A stretch of DNA of 64,000 nucleotides from Escherichia phage UB: the sequence record MH383160; one strand, written 5' to 3'. The position numbers and the translations under genes are program-made. This document shows, one piece after another, positions 2,008-48,988 of this stretch; positions within the stretch are counted from its first letter, which is position 1; each line of letters opens with the position of its first letter. The notes beneath the pieces are model-generated. The model did no database searches, had not been told where the DNA came from, and saw nothing but the letters and a program-made list of their open reading frames with translations.

Positions 2008-2796
2008 TTAAATGTTAGTAGTATAGTACTTGATTTCGTGTTGAATTGCAAGTTCTATTTGTTTATTGAAAAGAATTCCAAACTCTTTGATTGATTCACA
2101 ATCGAATTCAATAGAAAAAGTATACTCTGGTACACGTAGATTGTCAATCCCCAAATACTCTTTTATGTAAATTTTAATGAGTTTACATAGTGCAGTACTA
2201 AGACATTGAATTTCAAAATGTTTTGCACCTTTGTCAAAATACTTGAATGCATCAATATCACCTACAATAAAACTATTCTTTAATGTAGTGAATAGGTTCT
2301 CAGGAAACACGGTAATAGGTGACATTGATTTAAGAATGTATGTATCTTTGGCATTCTTAATGTACTCAATGAAGCAGTAGTTAACGTCAGGCTCGATTGA
2401 ACGATCCGCGTTATGATACCAGTGTTTAAACTCACTGTATTCAGCAAACTTATGCTGGCGTAATGCGTTACATTCTTCACACAGTGCAGTCATGTTCTCT
2501 TTATCATTACCGCCCTGAAGACAGTCCAGTACATTATGGTCTAACGTCATGCGTACAAGGCGTTTCCCTTTAAGTACATAAGGTCTGAATTTATAACGAT
2601 CTTTAGTACTGTGCTTGTGTAAAGTGAATACTACATTTGATTCACCACAACAATCACATTTAAAGCCATCACGTGACATTACATGAATGAGTTTGCGTGT
2701 GTTCGGTCCAAACTCAGATTTAGTAATGTTATCCACAATTTCTGATGGTTGGTAATATTTTGAATTCCGTTGAATCAGTTCATCGATAGTGCCCAT
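2008..2796 (-). CDS. HNH-family endonuclease (262 aa)
   Basis: CDCCGE zinc-knuckle followed by TLDHNVLDCLQGGNDKENMTALCEECNALR, the HNH pattern D-H...N...C..CN. Confidence 0.65.
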   Translation of the reverse strand: MGTIDELIQRNSKYYQPSEIVDNITKSEFGPNTRKLIHVMSRDGFKCDCCGESNVVFTLHKHSTKDRYKFRPYVLKGKRLVRMTLDHNVLDCLQGGNDKENMTALCEECNALRQHKFAEYSEFKHWYHNADRSIEPDVNYCFIEYIKNAKDTYILKSMSPITVFPENLFTTLKNSFIVGDIDAFKYFDKGAKHFEIQCLSTALCKLIKIYIKEYLGIDNLRVPEYTFSIEFDCESIKEFGILFNKQIELAIQHEIKYYTTNI

Positions 2797-3233
2797 TTAC
2801 ATTATTCCTTCTATGCAACAACCAAGAATTACTTTTTTAACTTCAACAACTCGTACCAAATAGAATCCATTTGAAAAGTTAAAACTATACATTTGTACTA
2901 AGGCATCTGCTTCAGATTTCGCACGTATACATGATAGATAAATTTCACGTATATCACCATCTAACGATACTTGTTTCTCTGCATCAATGACAATAGAACG
3001 AATCTCAAAACGAACACCATAACTCATTGAGTTTGTCCTACAATAAGCTTTGTGTTAGTATTACTATTGTAACACCACATTTGTTCTTTATTAACTGTAA
3101 TCCAAATATCTTTGTTTACTTGTTCGTATGTACTATCACGTACTGCTATACATTGATTCATGGAATTCATTGGGGTTATTTGTACACCGGAATTAACAGA
3201 AAAAGCTATTACTAAAAAGATTACTGAATTCAT

Positions 3234-3820
3234 TGGATATTCCTTAATGGTTAATCATCCATCTCTTCGAGATGTCTGTTCGCTTCTAATACTACGTATT
3301 CTACGCGAATGATTAATAACTGTCAAGGACTTTTAATATTGACGGGATTTGAGGAAGGGATTTTTCTTCCCCCCACAAGGAGGGAAATTTGACGCTGATG
3401 GTATCAGAGCTATTGCATTGAAGATTACTCATAAAGAGTGCGAAAGCGGGTCATCCTGTTTCTCTCTACTTCAGTTTCATATGACGGTCTACACTTTTAA
3501 ACATAGTGTATCTTCATTAAGTATCTATGCAATCAAATACTTAATGTGAGTACTCAAATTTTGGACGCAACTTTCCTGTACAAAATTCGATAACTCTCCC
3601 TTAGATAATTCGTAAGGTGTTATCCTTATATGTCTATCAAGGAACCACCAGCTATCCTAACGTGGTTCTTTATACAGCCGCATTGCCGTGAGGGGTTCAA
3701 ACTATGCCCACATCTAACGGGTTTCTTTTGCTGTTCGCACTGTCGGACTGCTCAACTGCCCTCTACGTTTTCGAGTGGATCAGGTACATAAATATCATGC
3801 CAACAGAATTGTACAAGATA
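3234..3820 (-). ncRNA. Candidate structured non-coding RNA (ORF-free, GC-richer segment)
   Basis: About 590 bp with no minus-strand ORF of 60 aa or more in an otherwise gap-free gene array; locally higher GC; promoter at 3821-3849 and terminator at 3851-3876 flank it; several hairpin-capable segments. Confidence 0.3.
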
Positions 3821-3849
3821 ATTATATCACAAACTTTTACTTCATCCCA
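3821..3849 (-). promoter_or_regulatory. Extended -10 promoter (TGTGATATAAT) reading into the ORF-free segment
   Basis: Minus-strand sequence GTTTGTGATATAAT; the -35 element is weak. Confidence 0.35.
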
Positions 3850-3850
3850 T

Positions 3851-3876
3851 AAAAAAAGGTTGGCATAAGCCAACCC
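3851..3876 (-). terminator. Intrinsic terminator after the sigma factor gene (bidirectional in appearance)
   Basis: Hairpin GGTTGGC-ATAA-GCCAACC flanked by an A7 run and a T-run. Confidence 0.55.
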
Positions 3877-3883
3877 TTTTTCT

Positions 3884-4849
3884 TTAGAAATCTTCGTATT
3901 CGTACCCTTTTGCAAGTACTAGCTTCTTAAGCTTTTGCATAGCTTCACTGTACTTTCGATGTATTGATGAACGGGATTTAACATATTTTCCATTATCATC
4001 AACAAAACCATTATCAGCAATCTCACGAAGCGTTTCAGGTTCATATTCACCTAGACCATGAACACGCTGGATAATCTCACGTTCTTTAGTACTCAATTCG
4101 TTAGTCAGTTCATTGATAGCATAACGTAAAGGTGCACGAATACTATCAACATTGAGGTTAAAATCAGAAGCAGGTGAATGAATAATGTCACCTAGTGTAC
4201 CATCGGTAACACCGTCTAATGGTGCATCCAGCGAAGTGTATTCGCTTTGAAATAACAAACAGTTATTAACATGCTGAATCTCAATCCCAGTACCCTCTGA
4301 GATTATTTCAGGAGTTGGGCGAACACCATGTTTACGCATATATTCCTGACAGAATCTTTTTACTTTGATCTTATGAACACTCATATAACGTGGGAAGTGT
4401 ACCATATAGTTAGCGTCAGAACTTTCGTTATAGACTGTCATGTAAATACTAGAAGAAGCATAGGTAATGAACTTAACATTCTTATTAAGATCAAAGGTTT
4501 TTAGTGCTCTCATGAACCCCTCAACACCATATGAAATCTTATCTTCAAATGGGATATAACAAGTACATTTACTTGCTACATCAATAATCAGTCCATAATT
4601 GTAACGAACTAACAGTTCAGTGTTTTTCTTTACATTGATACCAGCTTGAATATCACGAATTAGATCTTCATTGGAAACATTTGGTGGTCGCTTAAGTGTA
4701 ATATTATATTTGAAACTGCTTTGTACTTTACCTTCATTTTCATCTTTATCTTCAACGAAATCTAAGGCTTCTAGTGTGTTGACTTCTTCATTAGCAAAAC
4801 ATTCATCCAGTACTTCTTCGGCAATTGTATTTAAATCAAGCTTTTTCAC
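3884..4849 (-). CDS. RNA polymerase sigma factor, sigma-70 family (321 aa)
   Basis: Region-2-like LLVRYNYGLIIDVASK...GFMRALKTFD...KFITYASSSI and region-4-like LSTKEREIIQRVHGLGEYEPETLREIA...SRSSIHRKYSEAMQKLKK. Confidence 0.7.
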   Translation of the reverse strand: MKKLDLNTIAEEVLDECFANEEVNTLEALDFVEDKDENEGKVQSSFKYNITLKRPPNVSNEDLIRDIQAGINVKKNTELLVRYNYGLIIDVASKCTCYIPFEDKISYGVEGFMRALKTFDLNKNVKFITYASSSIYMTVYNESSDANYMVHFPRYMSVHKIKVKRFCQEYMRKHGVRPTPEIISEGTGIEIQHVNNCLLFQSEYTSLDAPLDGVTDGTLGDIIHSPASDFNLNVDSIRAPLRYAINELTNELSTKEREIIQRVHGLGEYEPETLREIADNGFVDDNGKYVKSRSSIHRKYSEAMQKLKKLVLAKGYEYEDF

Positions 4850-17904: not shown

Positions 17905-18041
<137 letters not shown>

Positions 18042-46949: not shown

Positions 46950-47920
46950 ATTAGGTCAATCTCACACAGTAAAGCACTAAGATTCATTTCACGGTCTGAT
47001 ACTGTTGCTTGCTTAACAACTGCATCACGAATTTTAACTTTAATCTTCATCAGTGTGATTTCATCAGTACTGAACATTTCAGCATTTCTGTACAAGTAAG
47101 AGAAAAATGCATCCATCTCATCATCAGGGATATTTTGTACAATTTGTTCACGCATTTGGCGAATGTTGCCTGCCTTTAATGCTTCAACAATTGCAGTACG
47201 ATACCCTGCTGAATTTTCAATACTATCTTCAAGTTTTACTAGCTTACCATCAACAACTGAACTTTGCAATACGTTTAGTGTTTTACGGAAATCAGGATAG
47301 GAAGCATTGATGTACTTTTGAACTTGTTCAACACTATCATCACTACTCAAATCAACACCTTCTGCTAGAAGAATATTATAAATTCGAGTCATGAATTGTT
47401 CCATATCATGCTTTTCGATTGTAATAACTTGAACACGAGAAATGATAGGTTTTTGAATTTTATGTGGTTCGTTACTTGTTAAAATAAAGCGAGCATTTTC
47501 ATGATAGTCTTCCATTACACGTTTCAAACTACCTTGTGCTTTGTGGTTCATCTGCTCCATTTCTTCAAGAACAAAAATACGATATCTACCAAAACATGAT
47601 AGCTTTGCTGCGGCATCGATTTTGTCACGAACAGCATCAATGCCTTCATCGGACATGTTAAGCGTGGTCACATCACTTGGATCAAGGTGTCCATTTTGAA
47701 CTAGTCCATTAATTAGTACTTTGATCGCAGATGTTTTACCAGTTCCTGCTGGGCCAAAAAACCCAATATGTGGAATGTCACCAGTCTTAATCCATTCTTC
47801 CATTTTCTGGCGTAGTGCATCGTTTTTTGATACATAATCTTCCATTGATTGTGGGCGATATTTTTCAGTCCATAGTGTGGTCATTTGTATTTCCTTATGT
47901 GTACGTGTTATAGAATCCAA
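46931..47920 (-). CDS. Clamp-loader ATPase subunit, T4 gp44-like (AAA+)
   Basis: Walker A GPAGTGKTS; Walker B FVLEEME; sensor-1 TSN; SRV (SRC-like) motif. Confidence 0.75.
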   Translation of the reverse strand: MDSITRTHKEIQMTTLWTEKYRPQSMEDYVSKNDALRQKMEEWIKTGDIPHIGFFGPAGTGKTSAIKVLINGLVQNGHLDPSDVTTLNMSDEGIDAVRDKIDAAAKLSCFGRYRIFVLEEMEQMNHKAQGSLKRVMEDYHENARFILTSNEPHKIQKPIISRVQVITIEKHDMEQFMTRIYNILLAEGVDLSSDDSVEQVQKYINASYPDFRKTLNVLQSSVVDGKLVKLEDSIENSAGYRTAIVEALKAGNIRQMREQIVQNIPDDEMDAFFSYLYRNAEMFSTDEITLMKIKVKIRDAVVKQATVSDREMNLSALLCEIDLICSGNM

Positions 47921-48958: not shown

Positions 48959-48988
48959 ATTATATCACATGTTTTTCTACCATTTCAA
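48959..48988 (-). promoter_or_regulatory. Sigma-70-type promoter (TTGAAA-N18-TATAAT, extended -10 TGTGATATAAT)
   Basis: Read on the minus strand upstream of 48569..48913. Confidence 0.45.

Follow-up and report, generated by a model that had tools for sequence, protein, structure and literature searches.

The DNA analysed here, a 64,000-nt stretch of Escherichia phage UB (MH383160) referred to as the window, is ~99% identical to Asteriusvirus jumbo coliphages, e.g., 121Q, PBECO4, and G17. The segment under study, a non-coding cassette, is flanked by the following genes:

3884..4849, minus strand: sigma-70-family gene with Sigma70 r2, r3, and r4 domains, stop at 3884
3024..3233, minus strand: 69-aa ORF, the next gene downstream of the cassette, with a ribosome-binding site at 3245..3240 and its start at 3233
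2797..3027, minus strand: 76-aa ORF
2008..2796, minus strand: 262-aa HNH-endonuclease-like ORF, the HNH annotation coming from relatives

The window's own protein from the 262-aa ORF (2008..2796) has no Pfam match. The initial annotation had placed about 590 bp without a credible ORF next to a sigma factor gene, the identity of which is confirmed by the Sigma70 domains. The longest ORFs within 3234–3883 encode 66, 54, and 53 aa on the plus strand and 39 and 50 aa on the minus strand, and none of these small ORFs is conserved. Homologs of this segment differ by insertions and deletions that are not multiples of three, and the small plus-strand ORFs called here in some records have no PHROG family. 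The locally higher GC content described at the outset is also borne out: with a value of 0.392, positions 3234–3833 share the top rank among 80 sampled 600-nt windows (range 0.28–0.39), the other being the tRNA cluster. Six phage tRNA genes are clustered at 16.1–21.2 kb of the window, among them a 92-nt tRNA-Ser with the unusual anticodon ACT, located by ARAGORN at 17911–18002.

By blastn, the full region is 88–99% identical in Asteriusvirus records. In addition, 27 distant phage records contain, outside annotated features, ~450 nt of it (window ~3330–3785) at ~70% identity, with 3–5 matching places per record, a conservation that speaks against chance. These matches include Serratia phage BF, the Erwinia pEa_SNUABM phages, Pectobacterium phage CBB, Cronobacter phage GAP32, Yersinia phage fHe-Yen9-04, Salmonella phages Munch and 7t3, a Klebsiella phage, and Xanthomonas phage XbC2. 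Phage ECO103, whose genome is unannotated, carries copies at 18.2, 128.3, 208.0, and 261.4 kb; these four share one strand and are 63–73% identical to one another. The window carries only the first of these four ECO103-type copies, and neither blastn nor nhmmer detects a second one within its 64 kb. Paralog groups hold their own gene neighborhood across genera. One of them is always located between an endonuclease VII/gp46–gp47-like region and a convergent T4-type baseplate gene; the eco_c3, Munch, L036, and L164 copies converge on the baseplate gene and have no co-oriented gene behind them. Sequence comparison identifies the region as one copy of a non-coding cassette kept in Rak2-like jumbo phages, with 3–5 diverged paralogs per genome.

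In window coordinates, the cassette contains the following features:

3851..3885, minus: bidirectional intrinsic terminator, stem 3858–3875, U-run 3857..3851, with U-runs on both strands
3849..3821, minus: RNA promoter TGGGAT-N17-TGATATAAT, with the −35-like TGGGAT at 3849..3844 and a 17-nt spacer
3829..3828 (TG) and 3826..3821 (−10, TATAAT), minus: extended −10 element of the RNA promoter
3389..3814, minus: structured non-coding RNA, ~426 nt
3630..3806, minus: 5′ domain of the RNA
3806..3799 with 3746..3740, minus: P1
3783..3756, minus: P1b hairpin
3751..3749 with 3739..3737, minus: P1c pseudoknot
3734..3730 with 3678..3674, minus: P2
3720..3714 with 3690..3686, minus: P3
3709..3707 with 3695..3693, minus: P3c
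3668..3642, minus: P4 hairpin
3683..3681 with 3632..3630, minus: PK4, joining the J3/2 strand to the strand before P5
3557..3588, minus: optional module M, hairpin AAUUUUG-UACAGGAAAGUUGCGUC-CAAAAUU
3412..3546, minus: 3′ domain, the most conserved core of the RNA
3546..3515, minus: P8 hairpin
3533..3527 (P8 loop) with 3418..3412 (3′ region), minus: PK1, 7 bp
3485..3481 with 3454..3450, minus: PK2, reaching into the P12 loop
3466..3462 with 3446..3442, minus: P12
3473..3469 with 3423..3419, minus: P11
3440..3426, minus: P13
3389..3400, minus: motif 1, the 3′-terminal CAUCAGCGUCAA of the RNA, first copy of a direct repeat
3363..3387, minus: conserved GC hairpin UUUCCCUCC-UUGU-GGGGGGAAGAAA
3339..3350, minus: motif 2, AAAUCCCGUCAA, second copy of the direct repeat
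3298..3326, minus: downstream-gene promoter TTGACA-N17-TAGAAT, sigma-70-type, 11/12 matches
3259..3275, minus: hairpin D2, ACAUCUC-GAA-GAGAUGG, a palindrome that covaries across the family, in the leader of the next gene

The terminator follows directly after the stop at 3884, ends the sigma factor gene, and defines the upstream boundary of the cassette. The promoter lies on the strand of the flanking genes, at the 5′ side of the element, which is the high-coordinate end. Both signals had been called in the initial annotation, at the sigma gene boundary and on the 5′ side, respectively, and both stand. The predicted start of the RNA is at ~3814 (G), 7 nt past the −10 element, and its conserved 3′ end, ...CAUCAGCGUCAA, stops at 3389.

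IMG/VR was scanned for a motif and nhmmer was then applied, yielding 33 clusters of sequences at <95% identity, which were aligned with MAFFT. The alignments show invariant blocks with helices between them, whose two sides change together. A fold model derived from column-pair statistics contains 88 pairs in 18 helices, organized in two domains with four pseudoknots (P1c, PK4, PK1, and PK2). When the model was tested on the plain MAFFT alignment of 33 sequences, all <95% identical, 94.3% of the cells were standard pairs, compared with 36–40% when partners were slid by 1–3 columns. In this set, 65 of the 88 pairs change on both sides (523 cells), and none of 500 shuffles reaches the observed values. 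A second set consisted of the window plus 23 sequences that had played no part in model building; these came from bacterial genomes and metagenomes, and all are <93% identical to those that had. Here, 92.1% of the cells are paired (35–41% after sliding by 1–3 columns), 62 of the 88 pairs change on both sides, and again 0/500 shuffles reach these values. Compensatory changes keep the fold in the copies from jumbo phages, metagenomes, and the chromosomal islands described below.

Cells with G–U outnumber those with A–C (165 vs. 50), several of the G–U pairs showing almost no variation. In combination, this excess and the promoter and terminator signals assign the RNA to the minus strand of the window. 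The folding energy of the single sequence is only mildly better than that of shuffles (z = −1.64); the case for an RNA rests on the comparative evidence. On this evidence, the segment is a minus-strand gene for a large pseudoknotted non-coding RNA of ~430 nt with at least 18 helices and with an extended −10 promoter of its own. The initial suggestion of a structured RNA, akin to the large ncRNAs of phages, is thereby strongly supported, its 18 helices covarying in two separate sequence sets. Both hairpin-capable segments singled out at that stage are real, but they had been read on the non-functional strand: GGGGTTCAAACTATGCCC is the opposite-strand reading of helix P3c, and AGCTATCCTAACGTGG corresponds to the P4 loop and part of the P4 stem.

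The helices vary freely, and the unpaired junction nucleotides AUAAAG, GAUAGACAUAUAAGG, UAAGGGAG, GACCGU, AGAAAC, and ACCCGCUU are nearly invariant, the last three being the invariant blocks of the 3′ domain. Module M occurs 0, 1, or 2 times per copy, at two alternative sites within the RNA family. Its loops were considered as kissing loops and rejected, since their palindromic look is not consistent across copies. RNAalifold also proposed a long-range GAUAG/CUAUC helix, which the model omits because 10 of the 33 sequences have A–C there. GCGG/CCGU and other candidate pairings are invariant and therefore offer no covariation to read.

An extended −10 element, TGnTATA(A/C)T, is located upstream of 32 of the 33 copies. 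In RNA copies, a TGGAAC, TGAAAC, or TGGGAC box lies 17 nt upstream of this element, and the family promoter consensus is TG(G/A)AAC-N17-TGnTATAAT. As judged by its sequence, the RNA promoter matches the 'divergent RpoD-like' TGAAACG class of phage CBB, which is found mostly before DNA-synthesis genes (PMC5259590). Because a TGAAAC-like box occurs in this class preceding DNA-synthesis genes, synthesis of the RNA probably begins in the early or middle phase of infection. The extended −10 should allow the host RNA polymerase to start without a −35 element. No report on the expression of Rak2-like phages was found in the searchable literature. The promoter pattern TG(G/A)(G/A)A(C/T)-N16–18-TATAAT has two further sites in the window, at 47375–47403 and 48959–48987 on the minus strand; the total of 3, compared with 1.9 expected from mononucleotide shuffles, is not significant alone. 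In ECO103, the same pattern occurs 24 times, with 20 occurrences on the minus strand.

At the other end of the RNA, an intrinsic terminator directly follows the conserved ...CAUCGUCAG end, between motif 1 and the GC hairpin, in 19 of the 33 copies. The remaining 14 have no terminator, the window copy among them, suggesting that its RNA 3′ end comes from processing or that the RNA remains attached, as a leader, to the operon downstream. In one paralog group, a covarying terminator-like hairpin with a U-run separates the extended −10 promoter from the body of the RNA. Members of this group (L006:1990-2044, L087, L018, L061, L033, L068, L084, and ECO103 at ~262.0 kb) are without a 3′ terminator.

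Conservation extends past the RNA. The cassette is conserved as a unit of 0.6–0.7 kb, including the DNA past the terminator, also in the islands. Every copy keeps, downstream of the RNA, the GC hairpin, the second decamer, an AT-rich stretch, a hairpin named D1, and the TTGACA-type promoter. The RNA is followed by a GGGGGG run and then by the AT-rich stretch, which resembles a −10 element or a T4 late promoter. D1 is a long hairpin with the conserved loop AACGAAGUGA and precedes the TTGACA-type promoter in most copies, while the D2 palindrome sits in the spacer of a TTGACA-type promoter and covaries between copies. Both hairpins are retained even where no co-oriented gene follows.

The decamer at the 3′ end of the RNA is repeated 49–87 nt downstream. 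In 46 of 47 cassettes, the two copies co-change as identical, not complementary, sequences: CGUCAG/CGUCAG in 22, CGUCAA/CGUCAA in 19, CGAAG/CGAAG in 4, and CGACAA/CGACAA in 1. The A(U/C)C position just upstream of the decamers also changes in step. Mutual information and inspection by eye of the D2 flank and the loops gave no consistent complementary partner for the repeat. In the window, the −35 element of the TTGACA promoter (3298..3326) is complementary to GUCAA of motif 2. The coupled change of the repeat with the RNA 3′ end is among the features that make the cassette worth pursuing.

The search was extended with a stricter pattern, which gave 75 true copies in metagenome contigs; L133 and other pattern-only matches are chance matches in GC-rich DNA. 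Some of the 75 copies (L164, L191, L194, L171, L217, and L203), a divergent 'type 2' from T4-like contigs, are recognizable in their 3′ domain and GC hairpin only; L164 has T4-type baseplate and Gp20 portal genes as neighbors. Full-length copies are present in nine Enterobacterales genome assemblies, including a complete Serratia fonticola chromosome as well as Citrobacter, Enterobacter, Silvania, and Buttiauxella. A copy is found in 2 of 5,426 E. coli genomes, and the plasmid collection contains no match to the cassette.

In the bacterial loci whose gene content was examined, the cassette looks to be part of a small integrative island. The islands carry one copy each, and in the contexts inspected, integrase genes adjoin the cassette. 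Usually, an integrase of the large serine or tyrosine type comes first, followed by the cassette, a facing cI/LexA-like repressor gene, a Ner-like gene, and a membrane protein. The only island delimited is that of E. coli LR-29-1 (L219, NZ_AP027515.1 ~3,473,000–3,483,700), which is 10.8 kb long and located at the 3′ side of ffs; in E. coli EEC_W5, too, the island is at ffs. The LR-29-1 island contains a tyrosine integrase disrupted by IS3, an unannotated gap of 1.4 kb that harbors the RNA cassette, a gene trio encoding mSLOG-DUF4326, DUF488, and dual-OB (DuOB) proteins, a resolvase, and a DUF2188 gene. The layout in Serratia fonticola NZ_CP183218.1 (L137) is unlike that of the other islands, the cassette lying between a duplicated rof gene and an operon that comprises two ParB_N/RepB-like genes and a large serine recombinase.

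Islands and phages share the cassette only, and the island copies retain its promoter of phage type, the GC hairpin, the repeat, and the hairpins further downstream. The fold is kept there by compensatory change, as in PK1 of the Serratia copy, UUUAUGU/ACAUAAA. A tblastn search with the island proteins against phages returned only spurious ORFs over the RNA and no homologs, and no replication or phage protein genes are recognizable in the island DNA examined, mostly 8-kb stretches. Judged by this shared content, the cassette is a self-contained unit, common to islands and phages that have no proteins in common.

We compared the element with known RNAs by an Rfam 15 scan of the window copy and 13 homologous loci (paralogs, islands, and type 2 copies) at E-values from 0.5 to 10, which returned only terminator look-alikes. 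Group I and II introns, RNase P RNA, tmRNA, GOLLD, ROOL, HEARO, OLE, raiA, and known riboswitches are thus ruled out as far as sequence-and-structure models see, which sets the element apart from the families named as candidates in the initial annotation. GOLLD, ROOL, HEARO, OLE, and raiA are absent even among the permissive-E matches in the 14 loci. Multiple copies are also not expected for RNase P RNA, and ARAGORN finds the six tRNAs at 16–21 kb and no tmRNA. A small base-pairing sRNA was rejected in view of the length of ~430 nt and of conservation in the junctions of a compact fold. The searchable literature on UE-S1, CBB, phAPEC6, jumbo-phage genomics, and viral structured-RNA catalogs does not describe the element. 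It appears to be an RNA family new to Rfam and to this literature, with an unusual cassette architecture and an unexpected occurrence in chromosomal islands. The GenBank record of UE-S1 (L001, ON568341.1 80759–80916) has a 158-bp 'repeat_region' within the RNA 5′ domain, on which its paper is silent.

With moderate confidence, we interpret the product as a stand-alone RNA that would bind protein, or assemble on its own, during infection. Such an RNA would most likely act through its three-dimensional fold rather than by antisense pairing, in agreement with the discrete promoter, the intricate conserved fold, the near-invariant unpaired junctions, the old paralogs, and the passage of the cassette between phages and islands as a self-contained unit. 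That it is not a leader in every copy (the eco_c3/Munch/L036/L164 group) points to a stand-alone role. The role we favor is that of a scaffold or decoy for a protein of the phage or its host, or else an assembly made only of RNA, like those of ROOL/GOLLD, and the 3–5 old paralogs could provide dosage or partner specialization. No protein partner gene is consistently found near the cassette. The 14 of 33 copies without a terminator, and the group with a terminator-like hairpin before the RNA, argue against a stand-alone RNA. In addition, the conservation everywhere, islands included, of the GC hairpin, the co-varying repeat, D1, and D2 past the terminator argues against an RNA acting only in trans.

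ROOL and GOLLD have been reported as RNA-only homo-oligomers (PMC12286853). The RNA described here resembles them in its several hundred nucleotides, its many helices and pseudoknots, its carriage by phages, and its own transcription unit. In contrast to them, it matches neither Rfam model, belongs to jumbo phages with Enterobacterales hosts, has 3–5 diverged paralogs per genome, and is embedded in a larger conserved non-coding cassette. The phi29 prohead RNA (pRNA) is likewise a phage-encoded folded RNA particle with a covarying loop–loop pairing, but it is ~170 nt long, single-copy, and unrelated in sequence, and PK1 of the cassette may be intramolecular.

The conserved DNA past the terminator is better accommodated by a cis-acting origin, a possible reading that nevertheless has the balance of probability against it. 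By analogy with known origins, a structured transcript would prime or organize replication at its own locus, and the islands would have copied the cassette for helper-driven replication. This reading is consistent with the conservation of the whole 0.6–0.7 kb cassette, with one copy that has no downstream gene, and with the 3–5 dispersed copies per genome. T4 has a similar number of origins, also dispersed over its genome. The GGGGGG run and AT-rich stretch after the RNA would help it to stay at, or return to, the locus, and the identity of the repeat in 46 of 47 cassettes is the outcome expected if an RNA has to anneal to DNA at a second site. The ColE1 RNA II and T4 oriF/oriG transcripts are also promoter-driven, a few hundred nucleotides long, and associated with a G-run and an AT-rich stretch at or after their 3′ ends. 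Plasmids with a T4 origin replicate on infection, which parallels islands that, in the DNA examined, have a full cassette with a phage-type promoter and no recognizable replication or phage protein genes. However, ColE1 RNA II and oriF/oriG have no conserved pseudoknotted core and no counterpart to the usual terminator or the co-varying repeat of the cassette, and known R-loop or primer origins need neither four pseudoknots nor invariant junction nucleotides. In 19 of 33 copies, an intrinsic terminator stands between RNA and G-run, and no initiator gene is linked to the cassette. Furthermore, the four ECO103 copies have the same direction, and no skew signal separable from transcription direction marks them; most of this genome is one long minus-strand transcription block, GC skew is confounded by transcription direction, and the skew and coding-strand maps carry no information on origins.

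In its full form, this proposal is rather doubtful: an RNA-dependent origin of Rak2-like jumbo phages, at which the folded transcript, guided by the repeat of its 3′ decamer, would start DNA synthesis at 3–5 sites, while islands without replication genes would have copied the cassette and would be amplified, and perhaps packaged, by the infecting phage. If true, this would amount to a new, protein-free mode of helper hijacking by a satellite.

A cis-regulatory leader is an unlikely function for the RNA. In such a case, the nascent transcript would modify the polymerase (put-like antitermination) or sense a ligand, and would thereby decide whether transcription reads through the following terminator into the downstream operon. 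The order promoter, RNA, terminator, genes in most copies agrees with this, as do the continuity of the window RNA with its downstream operon and the organization of most of the genome as one long minus-strand transcription block. The convergent paralog group (eco_c3/Munch/L036/L164), kept down to divergent type 2 phages, argues against a leader, as it faces the baseplate gene and is without a co-oriented downstream gene; a riboswitch or attenuation leader would always lie upstream of a co-oriented regulated gene. Separate promoters also lie between the RNA and the genes, and no riboswitch or leader family matches. Neither inspection nor mutual information gave a conserved alternative pairing of the RNA 3′ part with the terminator, although the direct repeat could hide one.

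The initial annotation had also considered a degenerate intron-like element, with an HNH endonuclease gene nearby. A remnant of a self-splicing intron or mobile element tied to that gene is highly improbable, even though the HNH gene is only 440 nt away, the element is multi-copy, and short direct repeats flank the GC hairpin. The group I model (RF00028) has no match at E ≤ 10 in the window region or at E ≤ 1 or E ≤ 0.5 in the 13 homologous loci, and group II models (RF00029 and related) have no match either, the RNA being ~430–490 nt long with a different architecture, whereas group II introns usually exceed 600 nt. The element splits no gene: its flanks are not exon halves but complete reading frames, the sigma gene with stop and terminator on one side and the 69-aa ORF with its ribosome-binding site on the other, and contexts differ between copies. 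At the same site in ECO103, the HNH gene and the 76-aa ORF are absent, the RNA is intact, and the 69-aa ORF is directly followed by a 60-aa ORF, which makes the HNH gene a separate mobile insertion. No other copy has an HNH neighbor, and the paralogs are old (63–73% identical) and keep their gene neighborhood across genera. Of the initial proposal, the nearby HNH gene is retained, annotated as such in relatives but unrelated to the RNA; together with the 76-aa ORF, the gene at 2008..2796 appears to be a mobile endonuclease insertion of the free-standing kind. Several promoter-like elements in the cassette might suggest a mere DNA regulatory region in repeated copies (promoter/operator hub) with no functional RNA, but this is scarcely credible given compensatory changes in 62–65 of 88 pairs, long-range pseudoknots, and the G–U over A–C excess, all signatures of a single-stranded fold.

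Large RNAs with so much conserved tertiary structure are rare, and past cases were ribozymes, guide RNAs, or unexpected RNA assemblies. The RNA accounts for a conserved 'empty' region that has been left blank or given spurious ORFs in all published annotations of these 350-kb genomes. The cassette also connects, for the first time at the molecular level, jumbo phages with a set of small chromosomal islands bearing integrases; these islands may be satellites of the phages or sensors for them. Since the RNA is present in culturable, engineerable E. coli phages (121Q, PBECO4, G17, and relatives), its function is directly testable.

The jumbo phage PA5oct, of the same wider clade, has four ORF-free ncRNA regions, of which ncRNA001 and ncRNA002 are abundantly transcribed; the 450-nt ncRNA002, a 'putative lncRNA', accounts for ~5% of phage reads by RNA-seq (PMC7318152). 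It is similar to the RNA described here in being an ORF-free region of ~450 nt. We considered ncRNA002 alone (L126, MK797984.1 21951–22401) as an expressed homolog and rejected it, as nhmmer at maximum sensitivity finds nothing and the invariant motifs are not evident. ncRNA002 contains a long perfect hairpin, CUGCUACAAGCGGG...CCCGCUUUGUAGCAG.
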